Origin: a virus
Taxonomy: Duplodnaviria; Heunggongvirae; Uroviricota; Caudoviricetes
Strand: one strand, 5' to 3'
Length of the DNA stretch: 64,000 nt
IMG/VR virus record: IMGVR_UViG_3300048838_001248
Coordinates: 1 to 64,000 of that record
Part shown: positions 4,527 through 63,657 of the stretch, in pieces
How positions within the stretch are numbered: position 1 is the first letter of the stretch
Layout: each line of letters opens with the position of its first letter
The notes under the pieces: generated by a model
The model's input: only the letters and a program-made list of their open reading frames with translations
Told to the model about the DNA's origin: nothing
The model's database searches: none
Made by a program: the position numbers and the translations under genes

Positions 4527-5077
4527 AAATACCGAGAACCGAAATACAATTCTATCGTTACGAAGCACGTGAATATAGTGCTGGGACTGATGAATTTGGA
4601 GACCCAATACATAAAATTGTACCAGACCCAAAGGTAAGTCTTATGACTTTTAATCTACATAAAGAAACTCCAAAAGGATATTGGATTGGGCATGGGTTTC
4701 ATTGTCCTGATAATTTACGTGCTAATGCAAGATGGGTTAGTAAAACTGGTAGAAAACGATACGCCTATCCAACCAAGGAAGAGGCACTTGAGAGTTTTAT
4801 TAAACGCAAGGAAAAACAGGTAAAGATATTGAAACATCAAACATGGTCAGCAGAAATTGCGTTAAAATTAGCACAAGAACTAAAAATAAAACACGAAAAA
4901 TTTAAACCCAGAGATAAAGTAAATCTCCCATTTAATGAAGAAGGTGAGGTTGTTGAATATCTTGATTTATTGTGGGGAAGTCGCTATAATGTCAGAATCA
5001 CAAAATCCAACGGATTTAATGATGTTGGAGAAGTTGTGGATTTTTTTGAAAAAGATTTGGAATTAATAAACAATTGA
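4523..5077 (+). CDS. hypothetical protein
   Basis: 184-aa ORF, ATGA overlap. Confidence 0.5.
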   Translation: MKIPRTEIQFYRYEAREYSAGTDEFGDPIHKIVPDPKVSLMTFNLHKETPKGYWIGHGFHCPDNLRANARWVSKTGRKRYAYPTKEEALESFIKRKEKQVKILKHQTWSAEIALKLAQELKIKHEKFKPRDKVNLPFNEEGEVVEYLDLLWGSRYNVRITKSNGFNDVGEVVDFFEKDLELINN

Positions 5078-5085
5078 CTACATTT
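5055..5085 (+). promoter_or_regulatory. host-type Bacteroidota sigma-A promoter
   Basis: TTTG-N19-TACATTTG before the small membrane protein / SPFH operon. Confidence 0.5.
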
Positions 5086-5113
5086 GCACGAATATTAATT
5101 TAAATTAAATAAT

Positions 5114-5281
5114 ATGATTATTCAAATCGTTTTTTATCTTTTGGTCTTCTTAGTATTCATTTACTATGTGACTGTTGCTATTCACCTATTGGGAACGCAG
5201 GTTTTTCAATCCGCAGACATTTCAATAGGTCGTGCTCTCATTCCCTTTTACTATTGGTTTAAAAAGGAAGTAATTAAGTAA
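5114..5281 (+). CDS. small membrane protein (possible NfeD-like partner of SPFH protein)
   Basis: 55-aa hydrophobic ORF directly after host-type promoter, upstream of SPFH gene. Confidence 0.4.
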   Translation: MIIQIVFYLLVFLVFIYYVTVAIHLLGTQVFQSADISIGRALIPFYYWFKKEVIK

Positions 5282-5375
5282 TTTATTAACAAACAATTTT
5301 ATTAACAATTAAAAACAAATTTTTATAAAAAACAAGAAAATTTTTGCAATTGCATTTGGTGTTCTCGCCATTATC

Positions 5376-6515
5376 ATGTTAATCATGATGGGTAGTATTT
5401 TGGAAACAAACAGAGCAGGTTATTTCCAGATTAAACAGGCTGCTATTACTGGTAAGATGAGTGTAAGGTTCAATCCCGGTACTTATTTCCAGAATTTCGG
5501 CACAATCAGCGACTATAAAAACGTAGCAACTGTTGGTATCGGTGAACATCACATTGGTGAAGGTACTGCTGATATTGAAGCTGTTGATGTAATTTTTAAT
5601 GATGGTTCTAAAGCCAAGATTTCAGGACTTATTCGAATAAAATTACCATATAGCGTTGAAGGTGCTCTTAATTTGAAAAACGAATATTCTCAGGGTTTTG
5701 AACATTTTATTCAATCTGGTGTCGTACCTATTGTAAACAATGCCATTAAACTCTCAGCGAACCTACGTAGTGCACAGGATGCATATACCACACTGGCTCT
5801 TTTCCAACAGGCAGTTGAAGACCAATTAAAACATGGTATATATGTAACGAAGTCCGATAAAGTAGAAAAAACCACATCCACTGGTGATACTGAAGAACAG
5901 CGTGTAACTGTACTTGTTTACGGTGATGACGGTCAACCACTGAGAACACCAAATAGACTTCAACAGTTGGGTTGTGAAGTACTTGAATGTGTTATTGATG
6001 TCCCACAATTTGATTCTAAGGTTGAAGAAATGATTTCACTCCGCAAAGATGAAGCCATGAAAACCGAACTTGCCAAGCAGTCAGCAATCCGTGCAAAACA
6101 GGATGCTCTTACCGCAGAACAGCAGGGTTTGGCAAACGTAGCAACCGCTAAATACAAACAAGAAGTTGTTAAGGTTGAAGCTGTGACTATCGCTCAGAAA
6201 GAATATGAAGTAGCTGCACTCGCTGCTAAGAAAGAAGAAGAAAATAAGAAAGCCACAATCTTCAAAGGTCAGGCAGAAGCCGAAGCAAACCGTTTAAAGG
6301 TTGCAGCAGGTCTTTCTCCACAGGAAGCTGCCGAATGGCATTATAAAACAACCGTTGGTGTTGCAGCAGAAATGGCAAAAGCACAGCCAAACGCATTTGT
6401 ACCACAAATAATGATTGGTGGTAGTGGTTCTGGCGCAAACAATAATGCAATGGAAGCTGTTGGTTTAAAAATGATGCTCGATGTTGTGAATCAACTTGAG
6501 ACTAAAAAGAAATAG
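5376..6515 (+). CDS. SPFH/band-7 (flotillin/stomatin-like) protein
   Basis: SPFH-like core then long Ala/Glu/Lys/Gln coiled region (AKQSAIRAKQDALTAEQQ...). A hydrophobic in-frame extension from about 5313 lacks an ATG. Confidence 0.65.
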   Translation: MLIMMGSILETNRAGYFQIKQAAITGKMSVRFNPGTYFQNFGTISDYKNVATVGIGEHHIGEGTADIEAVDVIFNDGSKAKISGLIRIKLPYSVEGALNLKNEYSQGFEHFIQSGVVPIVNNAIKLSANLRSAQDAYTTLALFQQAVEDQLKHGIYVTKSDKVEKTTSTGDTEEQRVTVLVYGDDGQPLRTPNRLQQLGCEVLECVIDVPQFDSKVEEMISLRKDEAMKTELAKQSAIRAKQDALTAEQQGLANVATAKYKQEVVKVEAVTIAQKEYEVAALAAKKEEENKKATIFKGQAEAEANRLKVAAGLSPQEAAEWHYKTTVGVAAEMAKAQPNAFVPQIMIGGSGSGANNNAMEAVGLKMMLDVVNQLETKKK

Positions 6516-12400: not shown

Positions 12401-13441
12401 ATGGAAACACTATTAGATAGAGACACTTTCCGTGAGTCCGTCTTCGAAAGAGACGGGCATCTTTGCGTTATCTGTGGTGAACCTGCGAAAGACGCTCACC
12501 ACATAATAGAACGCAGACTCTTTTCTAATGGTGGTTACTTTATTAATAATGGTGCAAGTCTCTGTGAAAAGCACCATATTCTTGCAGAACAAACAACACT
12601 TACTTGTGATGAAATCAGAAAAGCAGCAAAAATCGAAACAGTCGTTCTCCCCGAACACTTCTATTCGGACGTTGAATATGATAAATGGGGGAATGAAATT
12701 CTTCGAAATGGCACAAGAATCAAAGGCGATTTATTTGATGACCCGTCAGTACAAAAAATATTAAAACAAGGAAATGTTTTAAATCTTTTTGCTGACAGGG
12801 TTAAATATCCCCGAACTTTTCATCTACCTTGGTCTCCCGGAATGAATAGGGATGATAGACAAATGACTGACGTATCAATATTTGAGGGTCAACAAGTCAT
12901 GATTTGTGAGAAACTTGATGGCGAAAACACCACATGGTATCGGGATTATATGCATGCAAGGTCTTTAGATAGTGATAGTCATCCCAGCCGTACTTGGGTT
13001 AAGAACCTCTGGGCACAACATGGTTACGAAATTCCCGAAGGTTGGCGTGTTTGTGGCGAAAATATGTATGCCAAGCATGCAATTCATTATACCAAAGAAA
13101 ATAAAAATGCACTACAAACGTATTTTTATATGTTTAGTATTTGGAACGAAAAGAATTTTTGCTTATCTTGGGACGAAACTGAAGAATGGGCAGAACTTCT
13201 CGGACTTACACTTGTACCTGTTTTTTATAAAGGTATTTGGGATATGAGTGTTATTGAAGAACTTAATAAAAGAATGGAAGGAAGTCCAAATATTGTTGAG
13301 GGTTATGTTGTTAGACTTACAAGAGAATATCATTATAGCGAATTTAGAAATGTTTGTGGAAAATATGTACGCAAGAATCACGTACAGAATAATCACGGAC
13401 ACTGGAGTACACAAAAAATAATAAAAAATGAACTTGTTTAG
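12401..13441 (+). CDS. HNH endonuclease fused to ATP-dependent RNA/polynucleotide ligase
   Basis: N-terminal HNH (C..C..HH..N..LC..HH); ligase motif I KLDGEN, motif IV EGYVVR, motif V KYVRK. Confidence 0.65.
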   Translation: METLLDRDTFRESVFERDGHLCVICGEPAKDAHHIIERRLFSNGGYFINNGASLCEKHHILAEQTTLTCDEIRKAAKIETVVLPEHFYSDVEYDKWGNEILRNGTRIKGDLFDDPSVQKILKQGNVLNLFADRVKYPRTFHLPWSPGMNRDDRQMTDVSIFEGQQVMICEKLDGENTTWYRDYMHARSLDSDSHPSRTWVKNLWAQHGYEIPEGWRVCGENMYAKHAIHYTKENKNALQTYFYMFSIWNEKNFCLSWDETEEWAELLGLTLVPVFYKGIWDMSVIEELNKRMEGSPNIVEGYVVRLTREYHYSEFRNVCGKYVRKNHVQNNHGHWSTQKIIKNELV

Positions 13442-33515: not shown

Positions 33516-33546
33516 ATTATACGTAAATCATTTCAAAATGTTACAG
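33516..33546 (-). promoter_or_regulatory. phage ECF-type promoter (minus)
   Basis: Plus strand reads ATTATACG-N16-GTTACAG; 4 nt from start codon. Confidence 0.5.
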
Positions 33547-42776: not shown

Positions 42777-42807
42777 ATTATACGGATTTTAATTAAAATG
42801 GTTACAG
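42777..42807 (-). promoter_or_regulatory. phage promoter (minus)
   Basis: Spacer contains TTTTAATTAAAA. Confidence 0.55.
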
Positions 42808-58983: not shown

Positions 58984-59014
58984 TTGTAACTATTTATGAG
59001 ATATTACGTATAAT
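58984..59014 (+). promoter_or_regulatory. phage ECF-type promoter
   Basis: TTGTAAC-N16-CGTATAAT. Confidence 0.6.
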
Positions 59015-61765: not shown

Positions 61766-61770
61766 TTTTT

Positions 61771-61801
61771 TTGTAACAAATTAAAAAATTATACGTATAA
61801 T
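61771..61801 (+). promoter_or_regulatory. phage ECF-type promoter driving the tRNA-like RNA operon
   Basis: TTGTAAC-N16-CGTATAAT; no ORF downstream for about 1.2 kb. Confidence 0.6.
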
Positions 61802-62032
61802 TGCACAGAAGAAGTTCTTTGAATGTAGTCGAGTGTAAACTCCACATGTTGCTCGAAAGGTAGGCTAATCACTCATACCCAAACCATTGGGAACGAAGTG
61901 TTAGGTATTGAGATGCCGAGATATAGGGTATAATATGTAAGGTGTAGATTCAGACCAGATAGATGCATCCCAAGGAGAGCATGACACCCGCTATGGTTAG
62001 GTGGGAAAAGACTATTTTTTGTTAGCATGGAC

Positions 62033-62057
62033 GCAGGTTCGATTCCTGTGACCCCGA
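62033..62057 (+). other. orphan tRNA T-arm-like motif
   Basis: GCAGG-TTCGATT-CCTGT then GACCCCG-A; no complementary 5' acceptor strand found within 150 nt. Confidence 0.25.
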
Positions 62058-62114
62058 TGGAAACTCGGAATAAGGTGTACGACTCAGCAAGGATGAGCGG
62101 TTGCTAACAAATCT

Positions 62115-62210
62115 GGTGTTGTATGCCGATGATGGCAAGGCAACTTGTTGGTGAAGGGTCGAACCGAAGTACCACAAGACATCACGCTGGTTCAATTCCA
62201 GCCAGCACCA
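62115..62210 (+). tRNA. tRNA-like element (96 nt, anticodon arm not resolved)
   Basis: 7-bp acceptor GGTGTTG/CAGCACC with one G-U; D-stem TGCC/GGCA; perfect T-arm GCTGG-TTCAATT-CCAGC; discriminator A. Confidence 0.35.
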
Positions 62211-62315
62211 CAAAACCCTGAGTAGTGTCGTAGTACTTAGAGTGAAAACTTAACTATGCTGTAGAGGTAACACGCAGTTATGGGATGAAAGGGGTTTACG
62301 TTCTTTAAAATAAAT

Positions 62316-62443
62316 GGCTCAATCATCGCTGAAAATCAGAGGAAAAATGCATGAAGTATCCTGATGGAAAGTTGGAGATGGGGTTGTGCGGGGAGTGATA
62401 TCCGAAGCGCATGTATCAGGGGGTTCGACTCCCTCTTGAGCCA
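62316..62443 (+). tRNA. tRNA-like element with long internal insertion (128 nt)
   Basis: Perfect 7-bp acceptor GGCTCAA/TTGAGCC; T-arm GGGGG-TTCGACT-CCCTC; 5' half not a canonical cloverleaf. Confidence 0.25.
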
Positions 62444-62541
62444 CAAAGTGTAAAGTGAGAAGTCCATGTCGATATGATTTGATTCAGGAAGTACAGGACT
62501 AATATGGTGACAACACCTTTATACTATGTTCTTTAAAATCT

Positions 62542-62702
62542 GGGGGTATAAACAAACTGGTAAAGTTGCTTCCTGTTTTGGGAAGGTCAGACGGTAAGTG
62601 TACACTTATACTGTCGGAAGGTTGACAATAGTGGTACGTGGGTTCGAAACAGCGTATCATGAAGATAGACTGACTCTGGGGGTTCGATTCCCTCTATCCC
62701 CA
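62542..62702 (+). tRNA. class-II-like tRNA-like element with about 95-nt insertion before the T-arm (161 nt)
   Basis: Acceptor GGGGGTA/TATCCCC; 3-bp D-stem AAC/GTT with GG-containing loop; anticodon arm CTTCC-TGTTTTG-GGAAG; T-arm GGGGG-TTCGATT-CCCTC. Confidence 0.35.
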
Positions 62703-62792
62703 CATTATGTGTCGGAAGGCACATATAAGTGCCTGTCGTATTAAGGGTGCGTGAATCTGCAGATAACACACACTATATAGACTTCCGGTGCT

Positions 62793-62865
62793 TGCGATAT
62801 GACGCAGTTGGTTAGCGTGCCCTCGCTCAAGAGGGAAGTCACGGGTTCGAATCCCGTTATCGCAA
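62793..62865 (+). tRNA. tRNA (73 nt) with non-canonical 6-nt anticodon loop GCTCAA
   Basis: Perfect 7-bp acceptor TGCGATA/TATCGCA; D-arm ACGC-AGTTGGTTA-GCGT; anticodon stem CCCTC/GAGGG; T-arm ACGGG-TTCGAAT-CCCGT; discriminator A. Confidence 0.55.
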
Positions 62866-62930
62866 CAAATTTGTTTGGGGTCTGCTTCGGCAGACAGGTG
62901 GTTTACAATTAGGATGCTTAACCTAACCCA

Positions 62931-63002
62931 AAGGCATGAAAGTCTGGTCTTATATAGAAAGCATAACTGACCGATATACTTTCATGCCTTCCCAAACTTT
63001 TT
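62931..63002 (+). terminator. large stem-loop / terminator closing the RNA operon
   Basis: 13-bp stem AAGGCATGAAAGT/ACTTTCATGCCTT then T5 a few nt on. Confidence 0.45.
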
Positions 63003-63015
63003 AAATAGAAAAATT

Positions 63016-63657
63016 ATGGATAACTTAGGTGAAAATGTAAAATTCGAAGCATCCCATGTAATTAAATTGGGAAGTATTGAACGTAAAAACGCAATTGAAG
63101 AGATTGCATGGCAAGTCTTTTTAAATAGACTTGGTTTGAGTTTTAAAAGAGAACTCACTGACGAAGAAAAGAAATCAATCACCGATGATGAAAGTTATGA
63201 ATACTATCGTCAAGAAGCCGAGAAAATCTACGAAAAAAAGCAACGTGCAGTTTTAAATAAAAAGTATCCTATCATTGATATTCCGGCAGATGGTAGAGCC
63301 AAATGGTATGGTGGTGCTTATTGCCTGTGCTTTGTTTATTCAAAACATAATGGGAATTTTGTTCTCCGGGGTTATATTCGTGAAGTTGAAGAATATCTGA
63401 AAAAGAATTACACCCATTATTTCTGTAATAAAAGTCTTTGGTATGCTGGTCAAAACAGGGACATCTGGAGTTTCTGGAAATCAAATGTAGGAATTTCACT
63501 TCCAAGTATTCGTGAAAGAAAAAAGGGAAAAAAGGTTCAAGTTTGGGCATATCGTAGTTGGTTTGACGAAGATTCAACAAAAGAAGAACGTGAAGAAATG
63601 ACTTTTAAATTCAGACGTATGCCAAAACGTTGGATTTCAGAATTCGATAAATTTTAA
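63016..63657 (+). CDS. hypothetical protein
   Basis: 213-aa ORF after the RNA operon terminator. Confidence 0.5.
   Translation: MDNLGENVKFEASHVIKLGSIERKNAIEEIAWQVFLNRLGLSFKRELTDEEKKSITDDESYEYYRQEAEKIYEKKQRAVLNKKYPIIDIPADGRAKWYGGAYCLCFVYSKHNGNFVLRGYIREVEEYLKKNYTHYFCNKSLWYAGQNRDIWSFWKSNVGISLPSIRERKKGKKVQVWAYRSWFDEDSTKEEREEMTFKFRRMPKRWISEFDKF

Follow-up and report, generated by a model that had tools for sequence, protein, structure and literature searches.

A phage operon of exchangeable tRNA-like RNA cassettes that very probably do not decode

At the distal end of its tRNA operon, bacteriophage T4 encodes the stable RNAs RNAC and RNAD (species 2 RNA), whose biological role is unexplained (PMC3014915, PMC9697503). 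The tRNA genes of phages have come to be viewed as weapons with which tRNA-cleaving host defences are countered (PMC13096335), although the tRNAs concerned retain the ability to decode. Here, we analyze an RNA operon at positions 61,771 to 63,002 of a 64,000-nt stretch of viral DNA (positions 1 to 64,000 of the IMG/VR record IMGVR_UViG_3300048838_001248, Caudoviricetes), which was searched for elements on both strands and is referred to as the window throughout. The operon contains four tRNA-like elements, termed A to D, in which the acceptor/T-arm/elbow half of a tRNA and added domains are maintained by selection and the anticodon is not; on these grounds we consider them, with high probability, to be selected, non-decoding tRNA mimics.

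61773-61801, + strand: phage-specific promoter GTAAC-N17-CGTATAAT, which heads the RNA operon
62115-62210, + strand: element A (96 nt), a tRNA frame with a bulged helix in place of the anticodon arm
62316-62443, + strand: element B (128 nt), acceptor stem and T arm with two novel arms (P2/P3 and P4)
62542-62702, + strand: element C (161 nt), a class II, tRNA-Leu-like frame with a 3-bp D stem
62793-62865, + strand: element D (73 nt), a cloverleaf with a 6-nt 'anticodon' loop GCUCAA at 62825-62830

Among described systems, T4 RNAC is the closest analogue. The RNAC/RNAD type and elements A to C are comparable in context and anatomy: RNAC likewise belongs to a tRNA-type multi-RNA unit of a T4-type phage, is longer than a tRNA (139 nt; species 1 RNA), carries a canonical T arm (CCGGGUUCGAAUCCCGG) near its 3' end followed by a short closing helix, and shares with RNAD the lack of a known anticodon function. 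In T4, however, one or two such RNAs stand beside eight real tRNAs, whereas the locus described here has four to five mimics and no real tRNA, and RNAC lacks in its minimum-energy fold the perfect 7-bp acceptor stem that the present families possess. Homology to rnaC or rnaD was not detected, as nhmmer profiles of A, B, C, D and the leader RNA T described below hit only true T4 tRNAs (Leu, Thr, Pro). The locus is a new, much elaborated form of the phage tRNA-like stable RNA theme.

Non-decoding tRNA-shaped units whose ends are defined by tRNA enzymes beside other RNAs include the mascRNA of MALAT1 and the tRNA-like RNAs of gammaherpesvirus-68 (MHV68). YrlA, a bacterial Y-RNA-like non-coding RNA, mimics the T arm, D arm and elbow of tRNA without an anticodon; its termini lie in the Ro-binding helix and its 'acceptor' is closed, whereas the termini here are at the acceptor stem, and Rfam reported no Y-RNA hit. 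Plant-mitochondrial t-elements, as documented in PMC1920247, are also non-decoding and tRNA-shaped, with ends set by tRNA-processing enzymes. Their arrangement of a tRNA-like fold abutting another RNA recurs in the window, where D ends 7 nt before T and the non-tRNA cassette S1 is flanked by tRNA-like units. In contrast to t-elements, mascRNA and the MHV68 RNAs, which are eukaryotic or organellar, the phage locus holds several families with large extra domains in the form of shuffled cassettes. The tRNA-like domain of tmRNA also pairs an acceptor stem and T arm with other RNA in place of the anticodon arm, but the phage elements have no tag reading frame, no pseudoknot set and no G3:U70, the 3:70 pair being U-A, C-G, G-C and C-G in A to D. 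ARAGORN finds no tmRNA here, and the Rfam tmRNA model, whose gathering score is 47, matches only the 17-nt T arms, with 11-20 bits.

Anatomy and conservation of the tRNA-like elements

Elements were detected with a finder of our own that demands a 5-bp T stem, a TTCRANN loop, an acceptor stem paired at 7/7 positions with at most one G-U, and T at position 8. Throughout the 64 kb it returned only 62115-62210, 62316-62443, 62542-62702 and 62793-62865, all on the + strand, against 0.04 elements expected by chance from block shuffles; these are exactly the coordinates of the four acceptor-plus-T-arm elements put forward in an original prediction made from the sequence. The motif GGTTCRANTCC occurs five times in the window (0.17 expected), always on the + strand between 62036 and 62854. 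Each element joins a 7-bp acceptor stem and discriminator to a 5-bp T stem with a GTTCRA-type 7-nt loop, and none encodes CCA, the discriminator A being followed by CAA or CAU.

Standard finders miss these RNAs. ARAGORN made a single call in the window, a 'tRNA-???' with a 2-base anticodon at 62793-62866, and thus assigned no definite amino-acid identity; ordinary tRNAs at other coordinates, which the original prediction had named as the sign of a faulty folding, did not appear. Two elements exceeded the gathering score of the Rfam tRNA model, namely D (52.8 bits, with the predicted 6-nt loop) and A (33.6 bits, with 24 nt inserted in the anticodon loop). Related loci, identified below by L numbers, were collected through the open reading frame (ORF) downstream of the operon (63016-63657) and comprise five IMG/VR loci and 80 metagenome loci; L295, a closer relative, was found by exact-protein look-up, and cassettes were traced by sequence-profile searches with each piece of the window. 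ARAGORN and Rfam made no calls in the first five related loci, despite the presence of C and B homologues there, and elsewhere among the relatives ARAGORN returned '???' or implausible calls (74-78-nt 'Ser', Val(aac), Tyr(ata)). In all four families (A to D), pairing in the acceptor and T stems stands at 94-100% and is accompanied by compensatory changes.

In element A, a 4+5-bp bulged helix stands in the position of the anticodon arm, accompanied by an acceptor stem, a T arm and a D stem of 4 bp; the helix has a conserved internal loop, AAG/GAAG, and its tip varies in length. Its 12 homologues show 94% paired cells and 10 pairs with double changes, and covariation reaches 0.342 compared with at most 0.075 when partners are slid; T8 hardly varies, and GG is for the most part retained in the D loop. 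Element B, in which the original prediction had recognized no D or anticodon arm, has a cloverleaf-like layout with two non-canonical arms, an invariant P3 loop (AUGCAU) and, in place of a canonical D arm, an invariant GGUUGGAGA junction. Among its five homologues 97.2% of cells are paired, nine pairs carry double changes, and covariation is 0.452 (at most 0.162 with partners slid). Pattern searches for B matched only two contigs, both already among the relatives.

The 5' half of element C had been described beforehand as class II-like with a 3-bp D stem, and the frame is indeed tRNA-Leu-like, with a variable region of about 90 nt folded into two hairpins (V1 and V2). Throughout its 12 homologues the D loop reads AAAYUGGUAAA, T8, A14, G18, G19 and A73 are invariant, 83.9% of cells are paired, and 26 pairs show double changes, with all seven acceptor pairs varying yet still pairing; as in the other families, acceptor sequences are conserved within the family. 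In its 3-bp D stem, D loop and T arm, in A73 and in where its long variable arm is placed, C agrees with a class II tRNA-Leu, but the anticodon-type loop is unconserved, ranging from 4 to 7 nt without a common triplet and having G instead of U at position 33 in the window (UGUUUUG), the variable arm is far larger, and ARAGORN does not call the element. C is accordingly a remodelled class II tRNA-Leu, because ordinary tRNA-Leu(CAG) genes of three unrelated phages carry the very same D-arm 17-mer and because its profile, compared with the T4 tRNAs, matches tRNA-Leu best and in both halves.

Self-complementary hexamers occupy two of the loops, C V2 (62643-62648) and B P3 (62348-62353), and the C V1 loop (62600-62603) is self-complementary too. 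The V2 loop has the form U-N-C-G-N'-A, in which positions 2/5 are A-U in six, U-A in four and G-C in one of the 12 homologues, and its adjacent C and G cannot pair within a single loop. Preservation of the palindrome by compensatory change, together with this unpairable C-G, suggests that the B and C loops could form kissing-loop homodimers.

Element D is a well-formed cloverleaf that carries no cargo but just a short capped stem. In 15 sequences of D and a related E type (D/E-type) the frame of acceptor, D and T stems is 96.7% paired, covariation (0.699) is the highest of all families, and T8, A14, G18 and G19 are invariant. The 'anticodon' loops of the same sequences measure 3, 3, 4, 4, 4, 4, 4, 5, 5, 5, 6, 6, 7, 8 and 9 nt and share no conserved triplet.

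None of the four elements has a canonical anticodon arm, defined by a 5-bp stem, a 7-nt loop, U33, a purine at position 37 and an anticodon that orthologues share. The D arm with G18G19, U8 and A14 is present in C and D and mostly in A, and absent in its canonical form from B. Because acceptor, T arm, U8, A14 and the GG of the D loop are kept, A, C and D should adopt the tRNA L-shape with its elbow. The elements are thus tRNA-like and not tRNAs, as first proposed, and the locus is no standard phage tRNA island.

Could they nevertheless be decoding tRNAs, either with spliced insertions or, for D, as a suppressor or frameshifter with a 6-nt loop, as the original prediction had considered? The score of D on the tRNA model and the UCA and CAA triplets in its loop would fit, but neither anticodon nor loop length is conserved among orthologues, where only one of the 15 loops has 7 nt, and this loop is unconstrained while acceptor, D and T stems covary strongly. 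The idea of unusual introns fares no better, as the inserts are conserved, independently folded domains with compensatory changes: that of A is a continuous covarying helix, those of C are hairpins in the variable region, and B has new arms. Their 24-95 nt could not accommodate a group I intron, a group I core is absent, Rfam returned no family of introns (E ≤ 10), and the AAG/GAAG loops of A are directly opposed and not the staggered 3-nt bulges of a bulge-helix-bulge. Removal of the inserts would leave no canonical anticodon arm, and U33 is absent from the C loop. We regard decoding as very improbable. The same holds for decay of an earlier tRNA island, which might be read from the indels in anticodon loops, the debris-like 'orphan' T arm upstream of A and the derivation of C from tRNA-Leu. 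Purifying selection with compensatory changes is, however, apparent across loci whose neighbouring protein is only 43-69% identical, and even the 'orphan' T arm is part of a conserved, compensated module; since the extra domains are themselves conserved and covarying, the elements point to function and not to decay.

Accompanying cassettes and their turnover among related phages

Interleaved with A to D are further RNA modules, which extend to a conserved ORF.

61814-61823, + strand: leader motif GTTCTTTGAA, 5' of L, with copies at 62300-62309 (before B) and 62528-62537 (before C)
61825-62015, + strand: L (about 190 nt, not tRNA-like), closed by GUAGUC/GACUAU
62018-62111, + strand: A0, a closed cloverleaf-like RNA with a 10-bp closing helix UUGUUAGCAU/GUUGCUAACAA (fold z = -2.6)
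62213-62297, + strand: S1, a non-tRNA cassette closed by AAACCC/GGGUUU, its fold alone not significant
62447-62525, + strand: S2, a structured spacer found in the window only (fold z = -2.2)
62709-62791, + strand: S3, a structured spacer found in the window only, closed by CGGAAG/CUUCCG (fold z = -1.8)
62873-63002, + strand: T (about 130 nt, five helices; fold z = -4.9), which contains the predicted 'terminator'
63016-63657, + strand: conserved ORF (213 aa), 13-15 nt 3' of T

T is the only universal part across the related loci. It is present in 77 of them, always 13-15 nt upstream of a homologue of the ORF, and in 45 distinct sequences 95.5% of its cells are paired and 23 pairs show double changes. 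Its 7-bp closing helix (GUUUGGG at 62873-62879 with CCCAAAC at 62991-62997) is followed by a U-run at 62998-63002 and encloses a 13-bp helix (62931-62943 with 62978-62990), whose 34-nt loop bears its own hairpin, along with a cUUCGg hairpin and a repeated pair of hairpins that share the invariant loop AUAGAAnGCUUAAC. The 13-bp stem and T-run, earlier taken for a simple terminator, do exist, but they form the end of this conserved five-helix RNA, because the T-run directly follows CCCAAAC, which pairs with GTTTGGG. An exact 17-mer of T occurred in two IMG/VR contigs only, both already among the relatives. The downstream ORF has 293 homologues, no Pfam domain and no structural match, and promoter, T and ORF stand alone as a unit in many phages. 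T is a candidate for a protein-controlled attenuator or a ribonucleoprotein partner. In T4 (L291), the sequence just after rnaC (4840-4905, minus strand) begins CUUGCCUUGGCAGGUGG and superficially resembles the start of T (CUGCUUCGGCAGACAGGUGG); we consider this likeness a coincidence, as the T profile has no significant match there.

L is always the first cassette after the promoter and recurs in eight related loci with seven distinct sequences (L221, L222, L223/L234, L276, L233, L285 and L295); its single-sequence fold is no better than that of shuffles (z only -0.95). A0 accounts for the T arm at 62033-62057 that had been noted as an orphan: the T-arm-like hairpin is real (62033-62049) but is the first hairpin of this module, in the position of a D arm, and a GG-bearing loop stands third. 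This layout suggests a rearranged tRNA-like fold. A0 recurs in L295 (3317-3415), where compensatory changes preserve it, and in a more diverged form in L285. S1 is conserved in L295, L253 and L288, and in each copy tRNA-like cassettes flank it, whereas profile searches found no homologues of S2 or S3 in the loci fetched. Three of the four window occurrences of the leader motif lie inside the operon, and in relatives it precedes cassette 5' ends by 3-8 nt. Following the same GTTCTTTGAA leader, L003 has an extra ORF-free insert of about 420 nt between B and C (5080-5500), which has no Rfam match and may represent another, larger RNA cassette.

At permissive thresholds (E ≤ 10; the region and six relatives), Rfam gave hits to the tRNA model only, so that L, A0, B, C, S1 and T match none of its families. 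Four new RNA families that Rfam does not contain (A, B, C and T) are supported by covariation, and L and A0 are conserved candidates.

Cassette content and order differ even between close relatives. Arrays include L-A (L222), L-C (L223), L-A-D (L221), A-S1-D-D (L253), B only (L004), B-X-C (L003) and L-A0-A-S1-B-C (L295), and the window, with L-A0-A-S1-B-S2-C-S3-D, is among the richest. At the other extreme, at least nine cargo-free loci have the promoter 33-58 nt from T and nothing between. In 34 of 58 distinct loci a gap of about 7 nt separates the end of a T arm from T, and D ends 7 nt before T in the window. Such turnover of content is typical of accessory or arms-race loci.

Possible functions of the array

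In our view the operon is best explained as a series of independently folding RNA cassettes, four of them non-decoding tRNA mimics that act in trans, a reading to which we assign a probability of roughly 0.4. Maturation would probably rely on the tRNA machinery. The frames retain all that is recognized by RNase P, by a 3' endonuclease of the RNase Z/BN type and by the CCA-adding enzyme, so that cleavage of the transcript would be expected at every mimic: host RNase P would cut the 5' end, an RNase Z/BN-type activity would cut after the discriminator, and the CCA-adding enzyme would complete the 3' end. By comparison, CCA-less tRNAs of T4 arise from multimeric precursors cut by RNase P (PMC11143913). 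The same cuts would free the interleaved L, A0 and S1-S3 and set the 5' end of the T RNA, and the earlier notion of processing-dependent RNAs is to this extent still alive. Once released, the mimics would occupy proteins that recognize the acceptor/T-arm/elbow half of tRNA, with host anti-phage tRNases, tRNA-modifying toxins or tRNA enzymes as candidate targets, and the family-specific extra domains would add specificity or drive dimerization. We rank a decoy or mimic role first because of the family-specific acceptors and domains, the fast turnover of cassettes and the precedent of phage counter-defence; taken by itself, a role as decoy or competitor is a tentative proposal that we would sooner doubt than accept.

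Several observations weigh against trans-acting mimics. We infer all steps after transcription, and no candidate target protein was identified. RNAs without an anticodon loop could not serve as decoys for nucleases that read it, so that the earlier suggestion of decoys against anticodon nucleases survives in its tRNA-mimic part and is weakened in its choice of target, the anticodon loop being the least conserved part of these RNAs. In large amounts, tRNA mimics could also become competitors of translation by the phage itself, and the many related phages without any such cassette show that the function is dispensable. The host was not identified either, as the contig scan gave only three contigs of metagenome-assembled genomes (Ignavibacteriales, Patescibacteria, Saccharibacteria), which are probably binned phage DNA. 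Position 1:72 of D-type units is unpaired in five of 15 members (A.A or U.U), and the D-type leader GGUGUU can pair with the trailer AACA, lengthening the acceptor helix (62778-62792 with 62866-62872 in the window); both may alter whether or how RNase P and RNase Z cut. Finally, a pure processing role would explain just as well why the mimics alternate with other structured cassettes.

Such a role would make the tRNA-like units mere RNase P/RNase Z signals and stabilizers that free the effectors L, S1 and T and do nothing further after their release, in the manner of t-elements or mascRNA. Besides the alternation of tRNA-like and non-tRNA cassettes, it would account for the invariable place of S1 between tRNA-like units in the window, L295, L253 and L288, the recurrent 7-nt spacing from T, and the conserved leader (GUUCUUURAA) and trailer (A-CAA) motifs, and the t-elements (PMC1920247) provide a documented parallel. 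Yet at least nine loci have T and its ORF but no tRNA-like unit, tandem units have nothing between them (D-D in L253, B-C in L295, C-C in L276), and pairing would suffice for a processing signal, whereas the families keep acceptor sequence and large covarying domains; we therefore rank this explanation second and consider it unlikely. Somewhat less probable still, and third in our ranking, are natural tRNA scaffolds, with functional inserted domains in a frame that gives processing, CCA capping and nuclease resistance. The conserved and covarying inserted domains of A, B and C speak for them, as do the compensated 6-nt palindrome of the C V2 loop and the invariant AUGCAU of B, but D/E-type units are the commonest type next to T although they are cargo-less, and the frames keep tertiary-core nucleotides beyond the needs of a scaffold.

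Close behind, and similarly improbable, stand non-decoding carriers that are charged by anticodon-ignoring synthetases, such as leucyl-tRNA synthetase (LeuRS) in the case of C, and that donate amino acids to a non-ribosomal reaction or, in a variant, sequester synthetase or amino acid. The identity of E. coli tRNA-Leu for LeuRS lies in A73 and D-loop/tertiary elements, not in the anticodon or variable arm; C has an invariant A73, the shared tRNA-Leu(CAG) D-arm 17-mer and the match to both T4 tRNA-Leu halves, and acceptor sequences are conserved within families. An aminoacyl-tRNA-dependent phage enzyme is described in PMC13219725, but no recognizable aminoacyl-tRNA-dependent transferase is encoded near the locus, the adjacent ORFs being without Pfam, PHROG or fold match, and A, B and D lack a recognizable identity set, with G3:U70 in none. 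We reject a cis-regulatory leader, in which the 1.2 kb would be the 5' untranslated region of ORF 63016-63657 and the units would act on a T attenuator in a T-box-like manner, and give it only a slight chance. It is true that T ends in a helix and U-run 13 nt before the ORF start, which leaves no room for a separate promoter, that T and ORF are inseparable in 77 loci, and that both repeated T hairpins start with UGGU, the complement of ACCA-3'. This UGGU, however, does not covary with the discriminator and stays invariant even in E-type loci where the adjacent mimic has C73, T works without a tRNA-like unit in many phages, and there is no specifier-like element, nor do the mimics have an anticodon that T could read as a T-box leader would; Rfam found no T-box in the region and six relatives.

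Returning to mimics that act in trans, a bolder joint version would see in the shuffled array, carried by a large group of uncultured T4-like phages and made up of at least five families of purpose-built mimics, an unrecognized RNA-based counter-defence or host-takeover system aimed at acceptor/elbow-recognizing proteins. One family would be tRNA-Leu-derived and probably chargeable, others might dimerize by self-complementary loops, and the array would be coupled to the new structured leader RNA T and its partner protein; we think this combination unlikely as a whole. What sets the locus apart from decoding phage tRNAs is that a non-decoding tRNA half is kept by selection together with new domains, in several independent families and as exchangeable cassettes. 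This opens to test what the acceptor/T-arm/elbow half alone is worth to a phage, and whether RNA decoys or scaffolds are a general phage strategy. It also bears on T4 RNAC and RNAD, unexplained since the 1970s, and would, if the counter-defence reading is true, supply a function for RNAC. Moreover, the new RNA families are linked to a widespread protein family of unknown fold, encoded by the ORF behind T.

Promoter class, phage and neighbouring genes

The promoter, located at 61773-61801 within the predicted 61771-61801, reads GTAACAAATTAAAAAATTATACGTATAAT and has the form GTAACA-17-TATAAT (sigma-70-like score 10/12). Including this site, GTAAC-N17-CGTATAA occurs 43 times in the window (e.g., 1348-1375, 33517-33544, 42778-42805, 58986-59013 and 61773-61800), where 0.26 copies are expected, all co-oriented with gene arrays, and this excess and orientation identify GTAAC-N17-(C)GTATAA as a phage-specific promoter class. 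The same motif heads the homologous loci and is kept in all related loci. Arrays of small ORFs, including rIIA/rIIB, use the same general phage promoter as the RNA operon, and the class fits none of the T4 early, middle or late consensus sequences.

No ORF longer than 63 aa occurs on either strand of 61766-63015, as expected from the roughly 1.15 kb of ORF-free sequence first noticed behind the promoter, and GC content is 0.43-0.48 within the RNA stretch compared with 0.26-0.35 in its flanks. The predicted promoter-to-terminator unit is supported as a single non-coding transcription unit. It belongs to a phage that is uncultured and only distantly related to T4: its rIIA and that of cultured T4-like phages share no more than about 23-26% identity, and DNA similarity searches of GenBank phages gave no match for the RNA region, nor was one found for the downstream protein. 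Contigs of related phages reach 362 kb.

Among 20 window ORFs scanned with PHROG and Pfam, the only named functions are rIIA/rIIB, an RNA ligase and a peptide deformylase, and no tRNA enzyme was found near the RNA operon; the ORFs adjacent to it have no Pfam, PHROG or fold match. The RNA ligase ORF (12401-13441) matches PHROG 24030 and, at residues 165-323, Pfam RNA_ligase, and its N-terminal region of about 100 residues weakly matches HNH endonuclease families.

A further tRNA-like gene came to light in the ordinary tRNA island of an unrelated phage lineage (L036 4802-4883; also L046, L054 and L076). Its D arm is of the tRNA-Leu type, its acceptor contains one mismatch, and its 'anticodon' loop measures about 13 nt. 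As ARAGORN leaves it uncalled in L036 and L054, non-canonical tRNA-like genes may be under-reported in phages generally.

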